Part shown: positions 4,847 to 18,323 of the stretch, piece by piece | Position numbering within the stretch: position 1 is the stretch's first letter | Layout of the letters: the number at the start of each line of letters is the position of its first letter | From: an archaeon | GTDB lineage: Archaea > Iainarchaeota > Iainarchaeia > Iainarchaeales > Iainarchaeaceae | Direction: 5' to 3' | DNA: 23,064 nucleotides | Assembly: GCA_038046625.1 (NCBI GenBank) | Contig: JBBSVV010000032.1 | Span: 1-23,064 of the forward strand | Made by a program: the position numbers and the translations under genes | The notes under the pieces: model-generated | Database searches by the model: none | Told to the model about the DNA's origin: nothing | The model's input: only the letters and a program-made list of their open reading frames with translations

Positions 4847-5488
4847 CTAGAAATTGCCTATGCATACCTTGCCCACGCAGTGCTGGTGCGGGGGGCATTC
4901 CTTTTCCTGGTATTTGGGGTCGTTCTGGGGGCAGCATTGGGCCTCGCAGGCCGGCTTCACGCATTTTCCGTTCACGCAATCCAGCGTGCCAGAACATGCC
5001 TTGTCCTGTGTTCCGGTTATTCCGGCACAGCACTGGCTTTTGCATGCGTTGAGTTCGCATTTTCCGTTCACGCACTGCATGTTGTTTGCGCATGTTTTTT
5101 CCCCGTAGGCGGAGTTTGCGGCACAGCACTCGCTTTCGCAGGCCGGCTTGACGCATTCGAACCTCTCGCATGCCAATCCGGAGGGGCATTCCTTTCTTTC
5201 AAAGCCCTCGGTTATGCAGCACTCCGCGTCGCACTGCCTCGCAACGCACGCATTGTTCACGCACTCAAGCCTTCCGTCACAGGCTTTTTGCATGAATGTT
5301 CCGTCGGTGCAGCATTCAAAATCGCTTGGGCAGGCGCATTGGCTTAGTGAGCCTGCTTTTGTTCCGTCGGGGCATTTCACGAGCACTTCCCTTGGTTCAA
5401 CTGGCAGGAGCAGTGCTGCGCCAATGCCGAGCAATAGAAGTACGGTGAACACTATTGCCGCGAGGTTGCTTGTCATGCGCAGGTTCAT
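4847..5488 (-). CDS. Membrane-anchored cysteine-rich repeat protein
   Basis: N-terminal hydrophobic helix (LAAIVFTVLLLLGIGAALLL), a CPDG motif, then five ~31-34 aa repeats with six Cys each. Confidence 0.8.
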   Translation of the reverse strand: MNLRMTSNLAAIVFTVLLLLGIGAALLLPVEPREVLVKCPDGTKAGSLSQCACPSDFECCTDGTFMQKACDGRLECVNNACVARQCDAECCITEGFERKECPSGLACERFECVKPACESECCAANSAYGEKTCANNMQCVNGKCELNACKSQCCAGITGTQDKACSGTLDCVNGKCVKPACEAQCCPQNDPKYQEKECPPHQHCVGKVCIGNF

Positions 5489-5564
5489 GCCTTTCACTTT
5501 TACCGGCCGTAAATTATATCAAAAGACATTAATTTTTGAAACTTTTTTAGTGTCTTTCGATATT

Positions 5565-5753
5565 ATTTGTGGATTCGGCTTGATAAGCATTGCCTCAACA
5601 GTTTCGTCCGAGAGTGCGCCTACCCTGACGGGCACAGGTCGGAAGGGCGCCAAGATTGTTGGGTGCGAGTGCCATCTTCGTTGGACTCGATGGCAAGAAC
5701 TGCACTGCCGGAGGCGTGCGCCCCCACCCCCAACGCGGGCTTGCGTTGCTCGC
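5565..5753 (+). ncRNA. Structured intergenic element A (unknown family)
   Basis: Shares 5665-5748 with element B with compensatory changes, and GATTCGGCTTG with element C; long stem CTCAACAGTTT/AGATTGTTGGG with three G-U pairs on +. Confidence 0.6.
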
Positions 5754-6848
5754 TTACGGCAGGAAGTCCTCTTCCTTTATTTTTTTGGGAACGTAAGTTT
5801 CCGTGATGAACCTTATTCCTTTTTTTGAGAGTGCTTCGAGCTCCAGCTTGTATGCCTTTTCCCGCATGTTGTTGAATTCCTGTTTCCATTCCTTTTTCTG
5901 GAACCACTCGTAGCCCTCCATTTCCTTGAGGCGCTTCACGTCCAATTGGTTCAATTTGATTGTGACTTCCTTGGGTATCTTGAATTTTTCAACATCCATT
6001 GTTGTGAGGCCGATGAATTGCGCCGAAGGCGTCGCAAGCTTTTCCTCGGAGTATGACAGGCTTATCGAGCCCTGCTTTATTACGGAGTAAATGTACATTC
6101 CCCAGGGGTCCGCATCAGTGAGCACGTATATGGGCAACTTGAATTCCTTTACCAGGCGCTGTGCCATCCTTCTTTCTCCGCGTCCGGGCTGTCCCCTTCC
6201 TGTGAGTATTATGCATTTTTGTTTTTTCCAGAACTGGTCCTCGTTGAAGCGCCTCCAAACCGCGTCCTTCTCTATGAAGAGGATGTATTCGGCGTTGACT
6301 TTCTTGAATTCAATCCTGTCGGGTTCAACATTGCTCGGAACGCTCCACCCTCCGGAACCCATTTTTGTGAGATCTATGTTTACCCCGCCGTCCCTCAATT
6401 GCACGTCGCCCGCGATTATTCCCTTTGCGGAGGCCGCGAGATGCAGTTCTTCCCTGAGCAAATCCAGTGAGGCCTCGATGTCCTCAATGCATGGGTCGGA
6501 TTCCGACTGTTCCTCGAAAGTGTTTTCGTTCGTGCCCTCGATTGTGTGCTTGAGCGCGTAGTAAAGGTCACGGATGCTCACGGTGGCCTGCTGTTCAATC
6601 ACATTTCTTATTTCCGACGCAACCAAAAGTGTCTGCATGAATTTCTTGGAGTGCGCGACGTTCAGGAACTGCCTTTCGGACACCTTGTCCCCGAGCTTTA
6701 TTGTGCCGCTTTTTTTGTCAAAGAAAACGTTGTTCAGTGTCCTCACGGGCACCTCATAAGTCGGATTCTGGCTTTTGTCTATCTGCCTGTAGATTGCCTC
6801 GCCGATGCTTTCAAGCTTTTTTTGCACTTCCTTGTCCCTTCCAGCCAT
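5754..6848 (-). CDS. top6A: DNA topoisomerase VI subunit A
   Basis: SIRDLYY (catalytic Tyr), IEKDA, DADPWG TOPRIM motifs, KLELEAL. Confidence 0.96.
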   Translation of the reverse strand: MAGRDKEVQKKLESIGEAIYRQIDKSQNPTYEVPVRTLNNVFFDKKSGTIKLGDKVSERQFLNVAHSKKFMQTLLVASEIRNVIEQQATVSIRDLYYALKHTIEGTNENTFEEQSESDPCIEDIEASLDLLREELHLAASAKGIIAGDVQLRDGGVNIDLTKMGSGGWSVPSNVEPDRIEFKKVNAEYILFIEKDAVWRRFNEDQFWKKQKCIILTGRGQPGRGERRMAQRLVKEFKLPIYVLTDADPWGMYIYSVIKQGSISLSYSEEKLATPSAQFIGLTTMDVEKFKIPKEVTIKLNQLDVKRLKEMEGYEWFQKKEWKQEFNNMREKAYKLELEALSKKGIRFITETYVPKKIKEEDFLP

Positions 6849-6850
6849 TT

Positions 6851-8620
6851 TCACTCACTCTCCTCTTCTTCAATGGGCTCTTTCTTTCCCCCGTCCTTTC
6901 CCTTTGCGGTTTCTTTTTTTTCCTTTTCCATTTTTTTCTCGTAAGCCTTCTCTATTTCCTCTTCGCTTGCCTCGCCCTTTGCATCCGCCTCTTTTTCCTT
7001 CTGCTCCTCGAGCTTTAGGTGTTTCAAAACGAGCGCGTGCAGCTTGTCCTCGACCTGCTTTTTTGGCTTCTGCGCGAGTTCCGAAACCGCATACGCGACT
7101 TCTGATGCGTATTTGTAGAACATTTTCCTCTTAGCTTCCTTTTCCGCCTGCCTCTTCTGGCGCCCGATGAAAGTGTAAATTTTTCTTCCAGTGTCCATCA
7201 AAGCGAGGCGGAGTTCCTCCATTATTTCGTCCTCATCGCTGATTGCCTGCTTTCCTGCCGAAGTGTAGGGAATGTGCACTGAAATCAGGTTCACGAAAAC
7301 CGTCAATGGCGCGCTCTCCAGGTCCTTTATTCCGTACCTTTTCCAGTCAATGGACTGAACGGCCTTTGTTATTGCGCATGCCCCGGTATCAAAAAGCAAT
7401 GGTGTTCTGTTTGCGAACCTCATTATTTCCACTTTTCTTTCCTGCCGGCCTTCCTCATTTACAATGCCGGTTTTCCCGGCGTTGCCTCCGAATGCTATGC
7501 CGACCTCGACCTGGAATGGGAAGCCGCCCTTGTAAACGCTCGGTTTTCTTGTTACGACAGAAAGGAATTCCGGAACCACGATGCTTGAGAGGCTCTTCTT
7601 TATTCTTTCCTCGCCGATTGACCTCAGGCCGTCTGTCCTCGGCGCAATGAAGCTGATTTTTTTGAATTGGCCGATTATTTCCTCGGATTCCTCCCAAGTG
7701 AGTTGCCTAGGGTCCTTCCTCAGGTCAAATGAAACGTTTTTCGTGATTTCCTCAACGGCCTTGTCCCCGAGCCTGTCGAGTTCGCTTTTCAAAAAGCTTG
7801 AAACCTGCCTCGCCTTGGTGTATTTTGCGAGCGTGCTGAGTTCATCCACCGTAATGCCTTTCGGGTGCGGCTTTATTTCCAGTGGCTTTGCGGGAATTTC
7901 TTTTAAGGTTCTTTTGAAAACTATTTTGTTTCCGCTCGGCTCTATAAGTGTAATCTGTGCGTGCGGGTTTGCAATCGCGGTCCTCCTCAAATATTCAAGC
8001 GGCGCCTGTTCCGAGTTAACGTACTTCACGTCCTTGAACTTGGCCCTGATTACAGTTCCCTTGAACTCCTTTTTGAGTTCCGTGAGGTTGGAGATTTTTG
8101 CCTCGTTCTTTTTCGGGTCGATTGTTATTTCCAGGCTGATTGGCGCGTGCTTTCCCGTTCCGGTAATGACCTGCGTGGCTTTTCCCGTTGTGATTTGTGA
8201 AAGCATTGTGCATCCCGCGGCGCCGATTCCCTGCTGTCCGCGCATCTGCATCATCCTGTGGAATTTTGTTCCCGCAAGCAGCTGCCCGAGGGCTTTTCCG
8301 ACTGTTTCCTTTGTGAGGCCGGGGCCGTTGTCCTTTGCCGTAATCTCGTAATACTCGTTGCCCAGTTCCTTTACCTGGACCTCAATGTCGGGCAGTATTT
8401 TTGCCTCTTCGCACGCATCCAGCGAATTGGTGACGTACTCGTGCACAATTGTTGTCAGGGTCTTGATTTTTCCCGTTAACCCCAGCATCTGCATGTTTTT
8501 TTTGAAGAATTCTGCGACGGAATGTTCCTTGAATTCTGTTGCTATTTCTTCCGCGCTTGTTCCTTTGAGCTGTGCGCTTTCCGCTTCCGTTTCTTCATGT
8601 TCTTCATTTTCTTTCGCCAT
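6851..8620 (-). CDS. top6B: DNA topoisomerase VI subunit B
   Basis: SVAEFF, HEYVTNSLDACEE, DNGPG, RGQQGIG GHKL motifs; RFANRTPLL, YTSAGKQ. Confidence 0.96.
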   Translation of the reverse strand: MAKENEEHEETEAESAQLKGTSAEEIATEFKEHSVAEFFKKNMQMLGLTGKIKTLTTIVHEYVTNSLDACEEAKILPDIEVQVKELGNEYYEITAKDNGPGLTKETVGKALGQLLAGTKFHRMMQMRGQQGIGAAGCTMLSQITTGKATQVITGTGKHAPISLEITIDPKKNEAKISNLTELKKEFKGTVIRAKFKDVKYVNSEQAPLEYLRRTAIANPHAQITLIEPSGNKIVFKRTLKEIPAKPLEIKPHPKGITVDELSTLAKYTKARQVSSFLKSELDRLGDKAVEEITKNVSFDLRKDPRQLTWEESEEIIGQFKKISFIAPRTDGLRSIGEERIKKSLSSIVVPEFLSVVTRKPSVYKGGFPFQVEVGIAFGGNAGKTGIVNEEGRQERKVEIMRFANRTPLLFDTGACAITKAVQSIDWKRYGIKDLESAPLTVFVNLISVHIPYTSAGKQAISDEDEIMEELRLALMDTGRKIYTFIGRQKRQAEKEAKRKMFYKYASEVAYAVSELAQKPKKQVEDKLHALVLKHLKLEEQKEKEADAKGEASEEEIEKAYEKKMEKEKKETAKGKDGGKKEPIEEEESE

Positions 8621-8630
8621 AAACAAAACC

Positions 8631-9164
8631 TCACAATTCAAATCTTCCGCCGGAACCGCGTCTCTTCAGCACGTCATAAACGTGCGTGTGGGAGGCGCCC
8701 TTCAAAAGCATTTCAACCGCCCTCAGGGCCTTTGAAATTTCTTCCTCCGTGCCGATTATTGAAATTGTTTTCCCGTAAACCGAAATCAGTGCTCCCGTGT
8801 CCTGCTCAATTTCATTCCTTGCTTTTCCCCTTGTCCCTATTACGCGGCCTTTTTTTGCCTTCATTGTGCCCTCGCTTTTTCCGAAGAATTCCCGCAAATC
8901 AATTATTTGGAGCATCACGTCATCCTGGGAAAGCCTTGATGCGTGCTGCGGCGAGAATCCCCGCGCGATTGCCTTGACAATGCTCATTGCCTTCAGGTAC
9001 TTCAATGGGTTTCCTTTCTGGATTACTTCAACTTCCCCCTCACGGCTGTCAACGACCAGTTTGGTTTCCGTGAGCCTCTCTATTTTGCGTTTTGTCGCGC
9101 CTTTTTTTCCAATCAGGGCGCCAACCCTGTCGTGCGGCATCAGGAGAAATTCCGAAGAATCCAT
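8631..9164 (-). CDS. KH-domain pre-rRNA processing protein (Dim2/Pno1-like)
   Basis: Two KH GxxG motifs (LIGKKG, VIGTRG), AIARGFS, GASHTHVY; conserved position next to RIO1. Confidence 0.9.
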   Translation of the reverse strand: MDSSEFLLMPHDRVGALIGKKGATKRKIERLTETKLVVDSREGEVEVIQKGNPLKYLKAMSIVKAIARGFSPQHASRLSQDDVMLQIIDLREFFGKSEGTMKAKKGRVIGTRGKARNEIEQDTGALISVYGKTISIIGTEEEISKALRAVEMLLKGASHTHVYDVLKRRGSGGRFEL

Positions 9165-9197
9165 TCAAACTTAATATACTATATATATTATATATTT

Positions 9198-9995
9198 TTA
9201 TATTCGTCCCCGTTTTTTCTCCAGTTCTTCCTTCCTTGCCTTAACAGCCGCGTACATGCCCTCAAAGCCCGTTTCCAGCCCGTTTTTCGAGAAATAAGAG
9301 GCCATGTTGGTTACATCCCTTTCGAAGAATTCCCTCGCCTTTGGGTGCGTAACGAGAACGGCCTGTGCCATGTCAATGAAAACCAGTTCCTTGTTCCGCA
9401 CCAGAATGTTGTATTCCGACAAATCCGCGTGAATGAGATTCTCGAGGTAAAGCCGCGCAATGAAATCAATTGTCTGCCCGTAATAATTTTTGAGCTCTTT
9501 TTGCGTCGGTTTTGTTTCCCTGAGCTTCGGCGCAGCCTCGTTATTCTCGCCTATGAATTCCATTACGAGCACGTTTTCCATTGAGCCGAGCGGCAGCGGC
9601 GCGCTTAAATGCGCATTCGCGGCAACGGAGAGGTTCTTGAATTCTTTTTTCGCCCATGCAAAAACGAGCTGCCTCCTTTCCTTTTTCAGGTTCTTGAAGC
9701 GTTCATCGCCCTCAATGTACTCGTTCATGCGCTTGAAGTCTGTTGTGAGTGTTTTGTAGATTTTCACTGCGCGCCTGTTGTTGCCCTTGTCCAGCGCAAC
9801 AAAAACGTGCGCCTCTTTTCCAGTGCTTATGATGTGCTCTACAAAATTGAAAAGTTCCTTTGTCGAGAGTGTGTGCAGCGCCTTGAGCGTGCGCTTGTCG
9901 AAAACCTTTTCGAATATTTTCCTGTCGGACTCGTTTTTGAATGTCCTCTCGATTTTCTCGAACTCGAAGCCGTCTTCGGAAAATTCTTCTTGCAT
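9198..9995 (-). CDS. rio1: RIO1 serine kinase
   Basis: STGKEAHVF, AVKIY, WAKKEFKNL, HADLSEYNIL, IDMAQAV; start at ATG 9995. Confidence 0.93.
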   Translation of the reverse strand: MQEEFSEDGFEFEKIERTFKNESDRKIFEKVFDKRTLKALHTLSTKELFNFVEHIISTGKEAHVFVALDKGNNRRAVKIYKTLTTDFKRMNEYIEGDERFKNLKKERRQLVFAWAKKEFKNLSVAANAHLSAPLPLGSMENVLVMEFIGENNEAAPKLRETKPTQKELKNYYGQTIDFIARLYLENLIHADLSEYNILVRNKELVFIDMAQAVLVTHPKAREFFERDVTNMASYFSKNGLETGFEGMYAAVKARKEELEKKRGRI

Positions 9996-10049
9996 AAGAA
10001 TTATGGCAAACCGCGAAAGTTTTTTTGGCTTTTTCCGGCGGTTTGCCAG

Positions 10050-10094
10050 ATAGCAGACCATAAATTTCGCCGAATTATTTTATTGGCCTGCCAT
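10050..10094. repeat. ~45-bp palindromic repeat, copy 1
   Basis: ATAGCAGACCA...TGGCCTGCCAT; reverse complement nearly identical to 12429-12474. Confidence 0.8.
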
Positions 10095-10126
10095 AGCCTT
10101 TGCCCAAACGCGGGAAAAAATTTTTT

Positions 10127-10459
10127 TCAGATGTTGAGCTTGTCCAAAAACCCTTTTCTCTTGAGGTGCTCCATCTGGAAGCCCAAATATCTCCACACTA
10201 TGTCGGCTTTTGACGGCTGAAAATCCCATATCCTGACTATGACCAGGTCATTGTCGCGTATCCACGCGCGTTTCCTCATTTTTCCCGTGATGCGGCAGCT
10301 CCTTTCTAATCCGTCTTCGCACTGCACCTTTATCTGGCTCGCGCCCTGTCTTTGCGTCACAACGCCGAACATTTCGAATTCGTTTCGGTGAGGCAGCCTC
10401 ACCTTTGACATCTGTTCCTGCTGCAGTGCGGCCTTTTCTTCGTCGTCTTTTCTGCCCAA
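10127..10459 (-). CDS. eif1a: Translation initiation factor aIF-1A
   Basis: VRLP, CEDGLERSCRITGKMRKRAWI, WDFQPSKADIVWRY; TTG start. Confidence 0.93.
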   Translation of the reverse strand: MGRKDDEEKAALQQEQMSKVRLPHRNEFEMFGVVTQRQGASQIKVQCEDGLERSCRITGKMRKRAWIRDNDLVIVRIWDFQPSKADIVWRYLGFQMEHLKRKGFLDKLNI

Positions 10460-10463
10460 TTTC

Positions 10464-10754
10464 TCAGACCTTCAGTATTATTGCGTGCAGAACCCCTGCA
10501 ATCTTAATAATGTCGCGTTCACTTAAAAAACCTTGTTTAAGCGCGACTCCTACTGCCTTGCTTCCGAAGAGGTTTATGTTGTTGGCCTGCTTCAAAAGTT
10601 TCGCAAGTTTTTTTTCGCTTGTGAGTTTTCCCTTGTAGAATGATTCTTTTATTGTGACGTCGTAGTTTCCTTCCTTAAGGTTTTTGCCAAGAAGTTCTTT
10701 GTCGCAGCACGCGACAACAAAATTGCCCTGCGTGCTGTATGTGTCGCAATACAA
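10464..10754 (-). CDS. DUF424 family protein
   Basis: VVACCDKELLGK, SFYKG, INLFGSKAV; probable TTG start at 10754 (or 10757). The ORF-track extension runs through element B. Confidence 0.85.
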   Translation of the reverse strand: MYCDTYSTQGNFVVACCDKELLGKNLKEGNYDVTIKESFYKGKLTSEKKLAKLLKQANNINLFGSKAVGVALKQGFLSERDIIKIAGVLHAIILKV

Positions 10755-10757
10755 CAA

Positions 10758-10917
10758 CCCTTTCGCCGGTTCGCCCTGTCGGGTGCAAGGGGAGCGAGTA
10801 CTATCTTCGCTTTTGGGCTCGATAGTAAGATCTGCACTGCCGGAGGTGTGCGCCCACCCCGCCGCGGGCTTGCGGCGTGCGACTATCATCTTCGCTCTTC
10901 GGGCTATCGCTGATAAG
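10758..10917 (+). ncRNA. Structured intergenic element B (unknown family)
   Basis: Contains module M1 (shared with C), M2+M3 (shared with A) and a second M2-like unit (10879-10917). Confidence 0.62.
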
Positions 10918-10946
10918 TGTTTTGAGTAGCCTATTTTGCCCAGCCC

Positions 10947-11351
10947 CTATATTTTCCTGATTGCGCTGATTGCGCCGCACGCCGTGCATTTCAATACCTT
11001 GACTCCGTTCCTTTCAATGATTTGCGTGTCCGGCTTGTGGCACTCGTGGCACAGCACGTATTCCTTCAGATAATTTTCGAAGAGCTTGCTGATTTGGAGC
11101 TGGGGGAATTTTCCGTTCAAAGTGAGTTTTCCCTCGTCCATAATCATTGCGGTCGCGATTTCCTTGGTCAGGAATTTGTAGAAATGCTTGTCTTCTCTCT
11201 GCACAGTTTTCACAGCCTGCGAAAAGTTCCTGATTATTGTCTTGGTTCCCTGTATCTGAACCTCGAGCACAGGCAGTTCAAACCTTTCCTTTGAAACTGT
11301 TTTCTCGGGCAACGAGGAATAAAGGCGCTGGAGCATGTTATCGTAATCCAT
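10947..11351 (-). CDS. eif2b: Translation initiation factor aIF-2 beta
   Basis: MDYDNMLQRLY, ERFELP, KTIIRNF, zinc finger CHECHKPDT...CTACGA. Confidence 0.95.
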   Translation of the reverse strand: MDYDNMLQRLYSSLPEKTVSKERFELPVLEVQIQGTKTIIRNFSQAVKTVQREDKHFYKFLTKEIATAMIMDEGKLTLNGKFPQLQISKLFENYLKEYVLCHECHKPDTQIIERNGVKVLKCTACGAISAIRKI

Positions 11352-11445
11352 ACTAAACCTTGCGCTGTTAAAGGCTTTTAAAGGTTCTTTCCCATTTTTG
11401 TGCCGCAGGATAATGATTAAATACTCCGCATTTTAATATTCTGTC

Positions 11446-11814: not shown

Positions 11815-12432
11815 ATGGCCCGAGATTTGCGCCACTACAAGGATTACATGGATCAGCAGCCCGTGAACTGGGGGTTCCTGCGCATTGTCCTTGCTATAAT
11901 AATTTTTTTTGTTATTGCGTACTTCATTTCGCAGAACTCGTCAATCATTGCTTATCTCGCAAGTGGTTACGGCCTTTTTGGTTTGTTTGTGGCCGCAATC
12001 ATTGCGAACGCAACGGTTTTTTTCCCTCTCCTGATTGAGCCAATAGTTTTTCTCATAGCCTCTTCCCAACAAAGCCTTGTCTACGCGCTTCTTGTGGGCA
12101 TTGTGATGGGCGCAGGAGCCGCAATAGGCGAAATGACGTCCTATCTTCTCGGTTTGCTGGGAATCGAAGCCATAAAGAAAAAGGGTATTTTCGAGCTCGA
12201 AAAAATCGCGTTCATCCGCGAAAAAATCGAGGACAAGGGCATGGTTTTCATTTACCTTGTTTCGATTATTCCCTTCCCGTTCGACATCATTGGCATAACC
12301 GCGGGCCTCATAAAATACGATTTCAGGAAATTTTTTGTTGCCGCGCTTCTGGGCAAATCTACTAGGTATTTGATAATTGCGCTCGCGGGTTTTTACGGCA
12401 TCGGGATAATAAAATCAATTTTCAACATATAG
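11815..12432 (+). CDS. DedA/VTT-domain (YqaA/TVP38-like) membrane protein
   Basis: Several TM helices, GAAIGEMTSYLLG, IIPFPFDIIGITAG, GKSTRY; probable start ATG 11815. Confidence 0.85.
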   Translation: MARDLRHYKDYMDQQPVNWGFLRIVLAIIIFFVIAYFISQNSSIIAYLASGYGLFGLFVAAIIANATVFFPLLIEPIVFLIASSQQSLVYALLVGIVMGAGAAIGEMTSYLLGLLGIEAIKKKGIFELEKIAFIREKIEDKGMVFIYLVSIIPFPFDIIGITAGLIKYDFRKFFVAALLGKSTRYLIIALAGFYGIGIIKSIFNI

Positions 12433-12519
12433 CAGGCCAATAAAATAATTCGGTGAAGTCTCATGGTCTGCTATCCAGCAGACCCCCATAAATGCCGAAA
12501 AACTTTCATGGTCTGCTAT
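12429..12519. repeat. Two tandem copies of the ~45-bp palindromic repeat between convergent genes
   Basis: ATAGCAGGCCA...TGGTCTGCTAT (12429-12474) and AGCAGACC...TGGTCTGCTAT (12477-12519). Confidence 0.8.
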
Positions 12520-14357: not shown

Positions 14358-17300
14358 TTATTTTGAATCCTGTGGTTTGTAAAACCCGTTCTTTGGGGAG
14401 TAAATGTCACCGGCCTTATGCAATTTTTCAAGCAAATCGCGGGCCTTGTCCTTTTCTATTCCGAGCGTTTTTGCCTCGCCGATTATTTCCTCGATGGAAA
14501 TCATGTCGACTTCCTTTGCCTTCTCCCTGATTAATCCCAAAATTTTCTTGAGGTTTGAGAGCGTTGTGTGCGTTTGGCCGGAAGTAATGATGTCGATGTC
14601 GATTTTTCCGGTTTCGGGGTCGGTGACAAGGTCCTGCAGCGATGTTTTTACCAGCCTTATCGCCCTTTCAACGTCGTTCCTTTCAACCGCGTCGCTGAGC
14701 CTTACGCGCGCGCTCGCTTCGGACAATCTTATTATTCCCTCCAATTGTCGATGCGTTGCCGCATATGCGCCCTCCTTTCTTCCCTGGTCGCGCAATGCAA
14801 TGTAAAAATCTGATATTTCCTTCATTGACTCGTCCGTCATTATGGGGAATATTTTTTGGCGCGCGTATGAAATGAATTTTTTGAGGAGCTCTCCGCTGAT
14901 TTTCGGCGTGATTAATTCTTCGAGCTTTTCGAGCTCCACGCTTTTTTTTCCGCCGCCTTTCTTGAGCCTCTGCAGGTTCATTTCCCCGGCCCTGTGGCTC
15001 TTGATTATGTGGTCCGCAATCTCCTGGTCTTTTGTCCTGTCAAGGACATCCCGGATCATGAAGAACAGGTCGAACCTGCTTATGAGTGTTGCCGGCAAAT
15101 TGATTTGTTCTATGAATGGCTGGTAAGGGTCGAACCTTGAGTATTTGGGATTTGCGGCCGCAAGTACTGTTGTGTCGGCCTTGAATTTCGCTATGATTCC
15201 TGCTTTTGCCACGGAAACGGTATTGTGTAGCACGACACCTGCTGATATGAAGGTATGTGTCGGCTCTATTGTGACGTCATAAACCCATTTTGAGTCCTTG
15301 TTCTCTATTTTTTTGATTTCGGTAATTTCAAGGAACTTGATCGGAGAGTCTATAAGTCCAGCTATAGATTGTACTTTTTTTCCAAGGGCAAAGATTTTTT
15401 CCCTGGCCATTTTTTCGGCTGTTTCAAGCAGTTCGCCGTGTTTGGATGAGCGGTTCCTTTCAATGTAAGTTATGGCGCTTGGCGAAAGCCCCATTCTTTG
15501 TGAAATGTCGTTCAGGCTGATATGAGATGCTTTCCTTATTTCTCGCGGGTCTTCGGAACCAAGTGCTTTTTCCGCAGAATCGAGTTTGTTTTGGGCTTTT
15601 GATAAGTATTTTAGCACCGTGTTTGCTTCCGCATTATGGTTTTTCTTTGCATGGCTGAAAAAATACCCGCCGCTTATCCCTATTTCCTTGAGTATTCCAT
15701 TGATTTGCCTCACTATTTGTGGCGGAAGCAGCCTTCTGGAGCTTTCCCTGTTCCCGCTCCTCAGGATAAATTTCCCTATTTTTTCTTTTCTCCTGTCTGT
15801 GGGCGATACAACTATTTGCCTGAATTTTTCCATGTTTTGGGTTCCTGAAACAACAACTTTGTGATAGGGGCCTCTTTGCTCCGTTGCAATGTACGAAAAT
15901 ACGCCAATCTGCAGCAGCATGTCCTGGTAATCGCAGGCGAGCCCGTAGGAAGCGGTAGCGTAACCGATTCTTTCGCTGTCCACAAAACCGTCTCCGCTGA
16001 ATGCCGCTTGGAGGAAATTTTTGATTGTTTCCAGCTCAGCCTGCTTGATCTTGTTTGGCGCCCTTTTCTGCCTCGCCTTTGCAAGTATTTCCGTAAAGTT
16101 TTTCTCAAAAAACCTGTAGAGGGGCTTTGAAGCCATTCTTATTGTTGTGAGGTCTTTGGTGGCTTTTTCCCTTCTCTCCGCCTTTGCTATGCTGGTGTTG
16201 AGCCTGCCATGGAAACTGCTAGTGAAAGCGCTTTCCATGTCGCGCAGTATTTCCGGGTCCGTGTTGCTCACGCCTATTTCGGCATACCTGTTTTCATGGC
16301 TTATGTATGAGTGCCCCTCGCTCGCCACGTAACCCAACAGCCTGCCCACGCTCGGATTCATTGAAGCCGGCAGTTCGAGTTGTTTCCTCGTCATTTCCAC
16401 ATTCGAATCTAATTGCACGGGCGCCTTTTTTGTTTCATAAATGCCCACTCCGGGTGCAACCACTCCGGGTTCGGCTTTTTCCGCGGCCACTTCCTCAAAG
16501 CCGTGTTCGCCAAAAATGTAAAGTGGGTGCTCGGGCGTGACAGTTATTTTTCTTCCGTTCGAATATGTCACTTCAATGAAGTGGCTTGGCGCAATGTGCC
16601 TGCTCACCCTGTCGGCCTTCACCGAAAACATTTCCTTGAAGTCCGTGCTCAGCACCTCAATATTTTCAACCGGCAGTATCTGGCAATCCTTGCCGTCAAT
16701 TATTTTGCCGCCGTTTTCCTCCATGAGCGTATCAACGAGTTCCCCTATTTTTTTTGTCGAGCCGTCCGCAAGCATTATTTCAAAATCCTTGTGGTAGGAT
16801 TGCTGCTCGAGCGCCTCGTGCATTGCGCTCCTGTCTTCCGGCTCCATTTTGTCGAATTCATCCACCATTACCATTCCGCCTGAAGCGAGAACAAGCGCGC
16901 CTGCTTTTAGTGTCCAGCCTCCTTCCCCGAATTCATCTTTCACGGCTGTTGCGGAAAGGCCTGCTCCTGAAGCCGATTTTCCCGCGACGTAAATCGATTT
17001 CGGCGCTATGGCATCAGTTGCCTTCAAAATCGCGCTTTTGGCCATTCCCGGATCTCCTACCAAGAGTATGTGTATGTTTCCCCTTACCTGCTGGGCGTTG
17101 GGCAAAAGTTTTTTCACTCCGCCGAACAATTGGAGCGCGATTGATTCCTTCATTATTTCGTGGCCGTAAATGTGCGGCGCAATGCTCTGTATGAGCTGTT
17201 CATAAACGTCATCGCGCTTCGCGAGCTTGATTATTTCTTCCTCCTCTTCCTTTGATATTTCGACTTCCTCGAATTCTTTTGCGGTTTCCTCGATGTGAAT

Positions 17301-18047
17301 CGCCTCGAGATACCTGCCGTAAACGATTTTCTTTTCCTTTGGCGGCGAGAGCCTTATTATTCCGGTTATTCTTGTCCTGTCCCCCGGCGCGGCTTTATTC
17401 ACGTTGTCATCGCTCACGTAAATGTCGAGGTTGATTGCCTGTTCGCTTCCCTTTATTGCTTCAAGCGGTTCCTGTATCTGTATTTTCTGGTAATCGACAA
17501 AATCGCTTGTTTCCTCATCAAGGTTGAATGTCCTGTTCTTGCATTCGCTGCACATTGAAGGCGTCTTGGGCAACAGGTTCTTGGTCTGCGGAACCTTGTA
17601 GGTTGCGTCACAGCGCGTGCAGTGCCAGGTCGCGGACTTTAATTTCGGCAGCACGTCCGTGACCTGCCTTATTACGCCCTCGACGCTGATGAGTTTTCCT
17701 ATGTGCGAGGAACTGATGTCCATGAGAAGCGGCTGTTTTTCTTCGGGCAGGTTGAATACGCGTATGTGCGGGGAAAAATCCTCGACCTCGAGCATTGGGA
17801 CATCAATGTTCTTGATTGCTAATTGTGCCGCCTCGAGGCAGACGTCAGGATTAACCAGCAGTTCGTCCGCGAGCTCGAAATCATAGTGCTCGAGTTCCTT
17901 GAAATCGACAAAGAGGCTTCTTTTTTGTGGGTATTCACCCACGAGGCGCTCTATATCTTTCATGCACCTGTTCTTCAGGAACAATTCGAATTTCTCGACA
18001 AAGGGATTGTCCTCGCGCACCTTCTCCTCGTACATGCTTTTCCCCAC
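14358..18047 (-). CDS. mcm: MCM replicative helicase, intein-containing
   Basis: Zn finger CTRC/CSEC, Walker A GDPGMAKS, Walker B VDEFDKM, AAANP, SRFDL Arg finger, RQLEG, C-terminal wHTH. Start GTG 18047 or ATG 18035. Confidence 0.96.
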   Translation of the reverse strand: MGKSMYEEKVREDNPFVEKFELFLKNRCMKDIERLVGEYPQKRSLFVDFKELEHYDFELADELLVNPDVCLEAAQLAIKNIDVPMLEVEDFSPHIRVFNLPEEKQPLLMDISSSHIGKLISVEGVIRQVTDVLPKLKSATWHCTRCDATYKVPQTKNLLPKTPSMCSECKNRTFNLDEETSDFVDYQKIQIQEPLEAIKGSEQAINLDIYVSDDNVNKAAPGDRTRITGIIRLSPPKEKKIVYGRYLEAIHIEETAKEFEEVEISKEEEEEIIKLAKRDDVYEQLIQSIAPHIYGHEIMKESIALQLFGGVKKLLPNAQQVRGNIHILLVGDPGMAKSAILKATDAIAPKSIYVAGKSASGAGLSATAVKDEFGEGGWTLKAGALVLASGGMVMVDEFDKMEPEDRSAMHEALEQQSYHKDFEIMLADGSTKKIGELVDTLMEENGGKIIDGKDCQILPVENIEVLSTDFKEMFSVKADRVSRHIAPSHFIEVTYSNGRKITVTPEHPLYIFGEHGFEEVAAEKAEPGVVAPGVGIYETKKAPVQLDSNVEMTRKQLELPASMNPSVGRLLGYVASEGHSYISHENRYAEIGVSNTDPEILRDMESAFTSSFHGRLNTSIAKAERREKATKDLTTIRMASKPLYRFFEKNFTEILAKARQKRAPNKIKQAELETIKNFLQAAFSGDGFVDSERIGYATASYGLACDYQDMLLQIGVFSYIATEQRGPYHKVVVSGTQNMEKFRQIVVSPTDRRKEKIGKFILRSGNRESSRRLLPPQIVRQINGILKEIGISGGYFFSHAKKNHNAEANTVLKYLSKAQNKLDSAEKALGSEDPREIRKASHISLNDISQRMGLSPSAITYIERNRSSKHGELLETAEKMAREKIFALGKKVQSIAGLIDSPIKFLEITEIKKIENKDSKWVYDVTIEPTHTFISAGVVLHNTVSVAKAGIIAKFKADTTVLAAANPKYSRFDPYQPFIEQINLPATLISRFDLFFMIRDVLDRTKDQEIADHIIKSHRAGEMNLQRLKKGGGKKSVELEKLEELITPKISGELLKKFISYARQKIFPIMTDESMKEISDFYIALRDQGRKEGAYAATHRQLEGIIRLSEASARVRLSDAVERNDVERAIRLVKTSLQDLVTDPETGKIDIDIITSGQTHTTLSNLKKILGLIREKAKEVDMISIEEIIGEAKTLGIEKDKARDLLEKLHKAGDIYSPKNGFYKPQDSK
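15222..16799 (-). mobile_element. 526-aa intein with LAGLIDADG homing endonuclease in MCM
   Basis: Inserted at HEALEQQ|TVSVAKAG; begins SYHKDFEIMLADG, block B TVTPEHP, LLGYVASEG and FLQAAFSGDG endonuclease motifs, ends VYDVTIEPTHTF...VLHN, +1 Thr. Confidence 0.93.
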
Positions 18048-18081: not shown

Positions 18082-18323
18082 GAGGGCTGGTTGCCGCTGC
18101 GCGCAATCCTTTCGCCGGTTCGCCCTATATAGCGGGTGCAAGGGGAGCGACAGCCCCTGCTTTGCAGGGCCTTGGTCCCGCAACAGCGGGACAATAACTA
18201 TCGCACCGCGAGCCAGCGGCTGGAAAGCACCCCACCTTCACCCCCCTTAGGGGCTCGATAGGTCTTGCTTGCGCAACACAGCCTCTGAAGCAGTTGTTCT
18301 CTGATTGTCTTAGATTCGGCTTG
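18082..18323 (+). ncRNA. Structured intergenic element C (unknown family)
   Basis: Enclosing stem GGCTG-GTTGC...GCAAC-A-CAGCC; module M1 (18108-18150); hairpins CCCTGC/GCAGGG and GTCCCGC/GCGGGAC; CTATCG/CGATAG; GATTCGGCTTG shared with A. Confidence 0.6.

Follow-up and report, generated by a model that had tools for sequence, protein, structure and literature searches.

Two short repeats in an archaeal genome, which we call copies A and B, are probably built from modules (M2 and M3) of a family of small, non-coding, non-autonomous mobile elements of the Iainarchaeia. Members of this family occupy many loci, their structure is constrained, and their presence at a given site differs between close relatives. 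We infer that the constraint acts on the propagation of the elements and not on a function for the host. Both copies lie in a 23,064-nucleotide stretch of DNA (hereafter the window), in which a first-pass annotation had described them as the two copies of a structured module, M2+M3.

The window belongs to one contig (C32) of a source assembly comprising 986 kb in 57 contigs, which is 85% complete. Its genes are archaeal and include those for topoisomerase VI subunits A and B, KH, RIO1, aIF1A and DUF424 proteins, as well as aIF2-beta, an intein-bearing MCM, MetRS and aIF5A. Searching the whole window against Rfam in gathering mode returned a single match, a tRNA at 597-667. For comparison, we used the relative Candidatus Iainarchaeum andersonii SCGC AAA011-E11, a DPANN archaeon, which shares 98.1% identity with the window across 6.1 kb at topoisomerase VI (sequence L025) and 91-96% identity around aIF2-beta (sequence L265). 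Copy A (5665-5748, + strand) is separated by 5 nt from the stop codon of topoisomerase VI-A, a minus-strand gene, and copy B (10794-10877, + strand) lies between the minus-strand aIF2-beta and DUF424 genes. Because they occupy the + strand beside minus-strand genes, both copies are antisense to their operon.

The window holds other features that we record separately. The MCM gene (14358-18047, - strand; reading frame of 1229 aa) contains an intein with LAGLIDADG and HTH domains. A cysteine-rich open reading frame (ORF) at 4847-5497, for which we obtained no Pfam match, has internal direct repeats at 4932-5291 with spacings of 96 nt and 189 nt. An inverted duplicate of about 75 nt (10022-10095 and 12428-12502), with arms 75% and 93% complementary, repeats the initial 40 nt of the gene for RIO1 kinase together with the region upstream. 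It lies in the gap between two convergent genes, for a VTT-domain protein and a signal-peptide peptidase, and the motif ATGGTCTGCTAT is found there twice.

The coordinates and letters of A and B were as first described. We divided each copy, together with the sequence on its flanks, into the following modules and read a third family member in the window by eye.

5596..5669, + strand: leader hairpin X1 of copy A, CAACAG..TGTTG, with a nested insert in its loop, then linker GGGTGCGAG
5670..5695, + strand: Y hairpin of copy A (M2), outer stem TGCCATC/GATGGCA, internal loop TTC/TC, inner stem GT/AC
5702..5719, + strand: Z hairpin of copy A (first part of M3), GCAC-T-GCC GGA GGC-GTGC, seven pairs and one bulged T
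5720..5748, + strand: right end of copy A, GCCC, C-rich linker and terminal hairpin X2, CAACGC GGGCTT GCGTTG
10755..10798, + strand: leader hairpin X1 of copy B, CAACCC..GGTT, with an inserted small hairpin CGCCCTGTCGGGTGCAAG, and linker GGGAGCGAG
10799..10827, + strand: Y hairpin of copy B (M2), outer stem TACTATC/GATAGTA, internal loop TTC/TC, inner stem GC(TT)/(GG)GC
10834-10851, + strand: Z hairpin of copy B, with one G-U pair
10852-10855, + strand: GCCC of copy B, followed by a linker and then X2
10860-10877, + strand: X2 hairpin of copy B, CGCCGC GGGCTT GCGGCG
10878..10926, + strand: continuation of copy B: TGCGAC as linker, then a degenerate third hairpin TATCA..TGATA, then the remainder of the strain-specific insertion
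18104..18295, + strand: third family member, between the MCM start and MetRS

The X1 motif is present in the motif clusters of the genome, and the X1 leader of copy A recurs without an insert or with a shorter one (C3:50680, C49:20380). The leader of copy B abuts the TTG start codon of DUF424 (10752-10754, - strand); the same leader with its insert is also found at C10, C5 and C54 and at 18104 in the window. There, the third member is more complex than A or B: besides the X1 leader with copy B's small insert, it has a CTTGC..GCAAC hairpin, a Y hairpin that a large insert divides, and further hairpins. Read on the - strand, X2 of copy A is an X-type hairpin followed by GGGC; on the + strand, CTCGC (5749-5753) and the topoisomerase VI-A stop codon (5754-5756, - strand) come directly after the copy. 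M2 and M3 had been taken as one unit, a description that did not survive: M2 is part of an X-pseudoknot-Y arrangement on the + strand, and the terminal hairpin of M3 is an X-type hairpin in inverted orientation.

Copies A and B differ at two indel sites and by 12-13 substitutions, of which 12 is the better figure, the thirteenth arising from the placement of the second gap (gaps of 2+1 give 12). Eleven substitutions fall in proposed paired columns. Ten of these make up five pairs that change on both sides and remain Watson-Crick. The outer stem of M2 contains two such pairs, its inner stem one (GT/AC in A, GC/GC in B) and the terminal hairpin the other two (CAACGC/GCGTTG in A, CGCCGC/GCGGCG in B). 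One further pair is altered on a single side, from G-C to G-U, and a linker accounts for one more substitution, AAGAAC in A being AAGATC in B. Neither copy has a non-standard pair among the 22 proposed. When the substitutions were placed at random, five or more compensated double changes arose in none of 200,000 trials, and all pairs were kept in 661 of 200,000. These counts confirm the original claim that the differences between the copies are largely compensatory, and the unpaired letters said to be invariant (TTC, AAGA, GGA and GGGCTT) are indeed the same in both. The folding energy of the single copies was no better than that of shuffled sequences on either strand, with z-scores for A and B of +0.39 and +0.15 on the + strand and -1.5 and -0.9 on the - strand.

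We collected further copies of the Y hairpin with an anchor that fixed only ATC, TT[CT][GA], CTC and GAT. The resulting alignment holds 39 copies with covarying free pairs, 23 from the source genome (the Y hairpin of copy A among them) and 16 from family members. Paired cells amounted to 91.5%, compared with 84.2 +/- 0.8 in shuffles, and double-changed cells to 28, compared with 7.1; neither value was reached in 500 shuffles, although the shuffles, like the permutations described below, ignore kinship of the copies and therefore overstate significance. Slid controls on the same alignment were 27-42% paired. Individual positions show the alternation directly: pair 8-38 is AU in 21 copies, CG in 7 and GC in 3 (7 mismatches), pair 10-36 is UA in 32 and CG in 5 (2 mismatches), and pair 18-29 is CG in 26, UA in 7 and GC in 2 (1 mismatch). 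The outermost pair is weak, being unpaired in 10 of the 39 copies. The anchored columns (ATC/GAT and CTATC/GATAG) are set by the search patterns and are uninformative on pairing.

A stricter Y pattern, CTATCTTCG-N4-16-CTCGATAG, matched 49 of the 215 genomes of the class, and its reversed control matched none. Among 134 distinct copies we counted 86 inner sequences, and 127 of the copies form one or more pairs in addition to the closing G-C. Positions flanked by Watson-Crick pairs are themselves Watson-Crick in 100 cases, G-U in 4, A-C in 2 and otherwise in 2. For the terminal hairpin of M3, all four free pairs are Watson-Crick in 16 of 38 X2 anchor matches, compared with 0.15 by chance. The stems are CGCC/GGCG (10), CAAC/GTTG (4, one of them the orthologue of copy A), TGCC/GGCA (1) and TCGC/GCGA (1). 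Substitutions in further copies are thus not random with respect to the pairs first proposed, and the alignments support a pairing constraint on M2 and on the terminal stem of M3. For the Z hairpin, which stands invariably 3' of a Y hairpin in the roughly 11 copies inspected, variation consists of changes to G-U without a double change; these copies neither support nor contradict its pairing. Scanning the collection with a 16-letter Z-hairpin pattern yielded only chance matches in unrelated bacteria.

The GGGC loop had also been proposed to pair with the upstream GCCC as a pseudoknot. In 13 of the 16 X2 copies, GCCC (once GCTC) precedes the hairpin by 3-7 nt; because the loop was fixed by the search pattern, no covariation is visible for GCCC/GGGC itself. 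What does covary, family-wide, is the homologous pairing of loop and linker. Hairpin X always stands upstream of Y, and its loop is complementary to the X-Y linker: the longest Watson-Crick run between the two averaged 3.26, compared with 2.55 +/- 0.07 when loops were matched with the linkers of other copies, and none of 2000 permutations (125 distinct loop/linker sets) reached the observed complementarity. At least 10 distinct complementary classes exist, among them CACCT/AGGTG (L234, L337, L346), GCCT/AGGC (L340), AGGTC/GACCT (L306, L338, L353), CACGC/GCGTG (L323, L377), TTCCGT/ACGGAG (L283), GCTC/GAGC (many copies), GCTT/AAGC (L354), ACCG/CGGT (C3, C52) and TTCG/CGAG (X1). GCCC/GGGC is the class of X2-type hairpins, read from the other strand. 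On this comparison, which supports the pairing for the family, the pseudoknot in A and B would belong to the inverted X-type hairpin at the right end of each copy.

A and B are not the two copies of an isolated feature, as first thought: their modules recur at about 45 loci in the 1 Mb of the genome. A search of the assembly of 986 kb with copy A gave 24 matches, of which 9 are no more than 100 nt from a contig end, and motif clustering of the genome gave 49 loci. Metagenome contigs break within the modules, and no contig provided an informative joint spanning A or B; the junctions at 5200-5625 and 10781-11200 are present in metagenome runs X3 and X6.

The modules are combined in various ways. 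X1-Y occurs alone and within X1-Y-Z-X2-Y arrays (C48, C51), and Y adjoins X2 in either orientation (C9, C15, C30, L250). Inserts are carried in the X1 loop, where copy A has a second insert within the first, in the Y internal loop (C3:38220, C13, C48) and in the Z loop (C48). In some copies, X1 opens the element and its reverse complement closes it (C53:7527-7653, L244). A 23-nt palindromic hairpin, CCTTCTACCC GTA GGGTACGAGG, stands alone at many loci (G000 C1, C2, C3, C15, C18, C36, C39, C40 and others) and is also found inserted in Y hairpins; this hairpin is perhaps a mini-element in its own right.

Relative to the nearest ORFs, copies were opposite to both in 24 cases, in the same direction as both in 15, mixed in 15 and 9, and incomplete in 6, in a tally of 69 rows that includes three duplicated loci. 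The 74 neighbouring ORFs are unrelated housekeeping genes, with no transposase among them. Of 43 loci with a Y hairpin, 11 have a tRNA gene within 90 nt (L227, L229, L237, L279, L280, L281, L290, L291, L299, L302 and L305). The 5' end of X abuts the tRNA 3' end in tandem at L279, L281 and L291 and the tRNA 5' end in divergent arrangement at L227, L229, L299, L302 and L305; nearly the same acceptor-stem letters stand on the element's strand in both arrangements. Two of the 74 neighbouring ORFs are LAGLIDADG endonuclease-like (L279:454-1422, L281:567-1661), each about 80 nt from an X-pseudoknot-Y unit and next to a tRNA gene.

Comparison with relatives revealed that individual sites are polymorphic. 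In AAA011-E11, 12 nt stand in place of window positions 5576-5728, which make up most of copy A; the X2 stretch (5729-5748) is common to both genomes. Site B is empty in AAA011-E11, where 8 nt separate the stop codon from the TTG start codon, and is also compact in L266, L267 and L270; the insertion in the window comprises about 184 nt (alignment columns 30-213). The reciprocal case also occurs: AAA011-E11 (L265) carries an X-pseudoknot-Y unit upstream of aIF2-beta, opposite 11383-11410, a place that in the window holds no unit, just ordinary spacer of 26 nt.

Some insertions are accompanied by long duplications. After the topoisomerase VI-A stop codon, L026 and L028 carry different family members, the former flanked by a perfect 21-nt repeat of the gene end and the latter by a diverged copy of about 33 nt; no family member was seen at this position in 13 further relatives. 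At L278, a 59-nt X-pseudoknot-Y unit without terminal inverted repeats lies between two perfect 33-nt repeats. At A, at B and at the AAA011-E11 insertion near 11383, we found no convincing target duplication. In the 85%-complete assembly, we obtained no matches to the Y1 transposase domain (PF01797), for which controls matched in 6 of 14 genomes, or to reverse transcriptase and TnpB-type domains. A single tyrosine recombinase is present; it is XerA-like and encoded on a different contig from the window.

Taking these results together, we propose that the basic unit would be an element of about 60 nt, in which a hairpin X, whose loop pairs with the downstream linker as a pseudoknot, is followed by a hairpin Y, often with a third hairpin after it. 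In Y, the outer stem (CTATC/GATAG or CCATC/GATGG) and the internal loop (TTC/TC) would be fixed and the inner helix free to vary. Units would insert at gene and tRNA boundaries and in the loops of earlier copies, building mosaics such as A and B; copy A would be a mosaic of X1 with a nested insert, Y, Z and an inverted X-type hairpin, and the two copies would go back to separate sub-lineages of the family. The folded single strand, either RNA or single-stranded DNA, would be recognised or used in propagation, such that only lineages that keep their stems and pseudoknot go on spreading while resident copies decay neutrally. Selection at the level of propagation would thus make copies differ in a compensatory way, with no function needed where they land.

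The mismatches in the stems bear on this proposal. We counted 21 G-U and 21 A-C mismatches (Y outer stem 7 and 4, Y inner stem 4 and 2, X stems 10 and 15, respectively). A structured RNA kept at its site should accept G-U much more readily than A-C on its own strand, so the equal counts, small as they are, suggest that resident copies are decaying neutrally. The mixed orientations and the polymorphism between strains point in the same direction, towards selection during propagation. The first-pass view of a functional structured nucleic acid therefore stands in part: the stems and pseudoknot are constrained, whereas dispersal and polymorphism speak against a discrete RNA tied to its locus. The conserved internal loop and the pseudoknot would suit a functional RNA as well.

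One such function would be that of a domesticated or host-useful RNA structure at transcript boundaries, comparable to the stabilisation or punctuation of bacterial mRNAs by REP/BIME elements; a folded copy would protect the ends of transcripts, serve as a processing or termination signal or re-couple translation of the genes on its two sides. We consider this unlikely, though not negligible, since copies lie almost exactly at gene and tRNA ends, B falls between stop and start codons that are 8 nt apart in the empty allele, and the Y internal loop and pseudoknot are conserved across the whole class. However, copies take both orientations to co-directional genes (24 opposite and 15 same), A and B are antisense to their operon, near-identical genomes differ in the presence of copies, and G-U pairs are not in excess. 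Gene boundaries, moreover, are perhaps the sole tolerated landing sites in compact genomes.

We give a small chance to the idea that X-pseudoknot-Y is a self-cleaving or intron-like RNA that is removed from transcripts or moves through an RNA stage. A covarying pseudoknot beside a hairpin with an invariant internal loop has the look of small catalytic or protein-recognised RNAs; the abutment of units on tRNA genes (11 of 43 loci) and the LAGLIDADG endonuclease-like ORFs (2 of 74 neighbours) would also suit such an RNA. It is opposed by the missing Rfam match even at E-values up to 10, by the failure to find a reverse transcriptase and by wobble pairs that show no strand asymmetry; no bulge-helix-bulge motif was found by eye, although inspection by eye is no real test.

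The parity of G-U and A-C is also what a strand-symmetric process would be expected to yield, and pairing might in principle be kept by a selection-free DNA process, such as correction of one arm by the other in extruded palindromes. We regard this as very improbable: the stems are merely 5-7 bp, invariant unpaired loop letters adjoin free helices, and arm-to-arm correction cannot yield covariation of a pseudoknot between loop and linker. The remaining suggestion, that M2+M3 is a cis-regulatory or ligand-sensing RNA of both neighbouring gene sets, in favour of which the covarying stems and fixed loops of A and B could be cited, is scarcely credible, given dozens of copies beside unrelated genes in mixed orientations, an antisense position to the flanking genes at both loci, sites that are empty in close relatives, and the absence of any Rfam or riboswitch family match; ligand sensing is accordingly not supported, and we rejected a riboswitch or other cis-regulatory leader as a candidate.

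Returning to the mobile-element reading, we can extend it speculatively, in a form that we think rather unlikely as a whole: an X-pseudoknot-Y RNA or single-stranded DNA of about 60 nt might direct its own insertion at stem-loops without an element-encoded transposase, produce duplications of 20-30 nt or more and seed archaeal tRNA introns. Its targets would be tRNA acceptor ends, hairpins at gene ends and the loops of older copies.

If the family is indeed mobile, a class of ultra-small archaea carries undescribed folded mini-elements that spread without a recognisable transposase and have nothing conserved but a pseudoknot and a hairpin whose internal loop is fixed. They would offer a small, concrete substrate for finding a new insertion mechanism, which would have to explain why target duplications are long and why units land at stem-loops and tRNA ends. 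For the discovery of RNA motifs, the case would carry a caution: selfish repeats can give clean covariation and invariant loops, so covariation alone is no proof of host function. New here are the quantified covariation of M2 and M3, the family-wide covariation of the pseudoknot and the absence of wobble asymmetry.

Known RNA folds and recombination sites did not account for the copies. Over 5500-11000 of the window, Rfam in E-value mode up to 10 returned nothing on A or B and two chance snoRNA matches outside them. K-turn, hammerhead, twister, pistol and HDV-like folds showed no fit, in agreement with Rfam. We also rejected an integron attC array: the X1 tail GTTGGGT fits the GTTRRRY core, but the context is against it, since topoisomerase VI, KH, RIO1, aIF1A and DUF424 lie between A and B and the recombinase is encoded elsewhere. 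Among the papers listed by a literature search on repeats, MITEs and hairpins of Iainarchaeum, Diapherotrites and DPANN, none appeared to describe the family. A prokaryote-wide MITE census reports high MITE density in some DPANN genomes (PMC11602168). The family is apparently undescribed, although it might still be among the unnamed MITEs of that census. Like MITEs, its members are small, non-coding, non-autonomous and present in many copies, and some are bounded by inverted X hairpins. Unlike MITEs, they have no cognate transposase among the families that we covered (Y1 and TnpB-type domains, and the 74 neighbouring ORFs); their duplications are long and variable (21, about 33 and 33 nt) instead of short and fixed, and many units are without inverted ends.

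REP/BIME elements of bacteria are palindromic units arranged in mosaics and mobilised by RAYT, a Y1 transposase. The elements described here resemble them in being short imperfect palindromes that occur in many copies, lie between genes, form mosaics in both orientations and serve as targets for further insertion. By contrast, the present family is archaeal, in a genome where we found no Y1 transposase domain, and its units have a pseudoknot and a fixed internal loop and can duplicate 21-33 nt on insertion. Certain insertions in Helicobacter reportedly come with a long target duplication, as Nobusato in 2000 and Furuta and Kobayashi are said to have described. Their duplication is similarly long and variable, but they are protein-coding cassettes rather than folded units of 60 nt. 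Rickettsia palindromic elements, mitochondrial GC clusters and double-hairpin elements are tiny selfish hairpin inserts; to our knowledge, a pseudoknot with covarying partners is not known for any of them. They belong to other hosts and have no sequence relation to the family, yet they share with it a fold that is kept as the sequence drifts, nesting of one copy in another and spread without a known enzyme.
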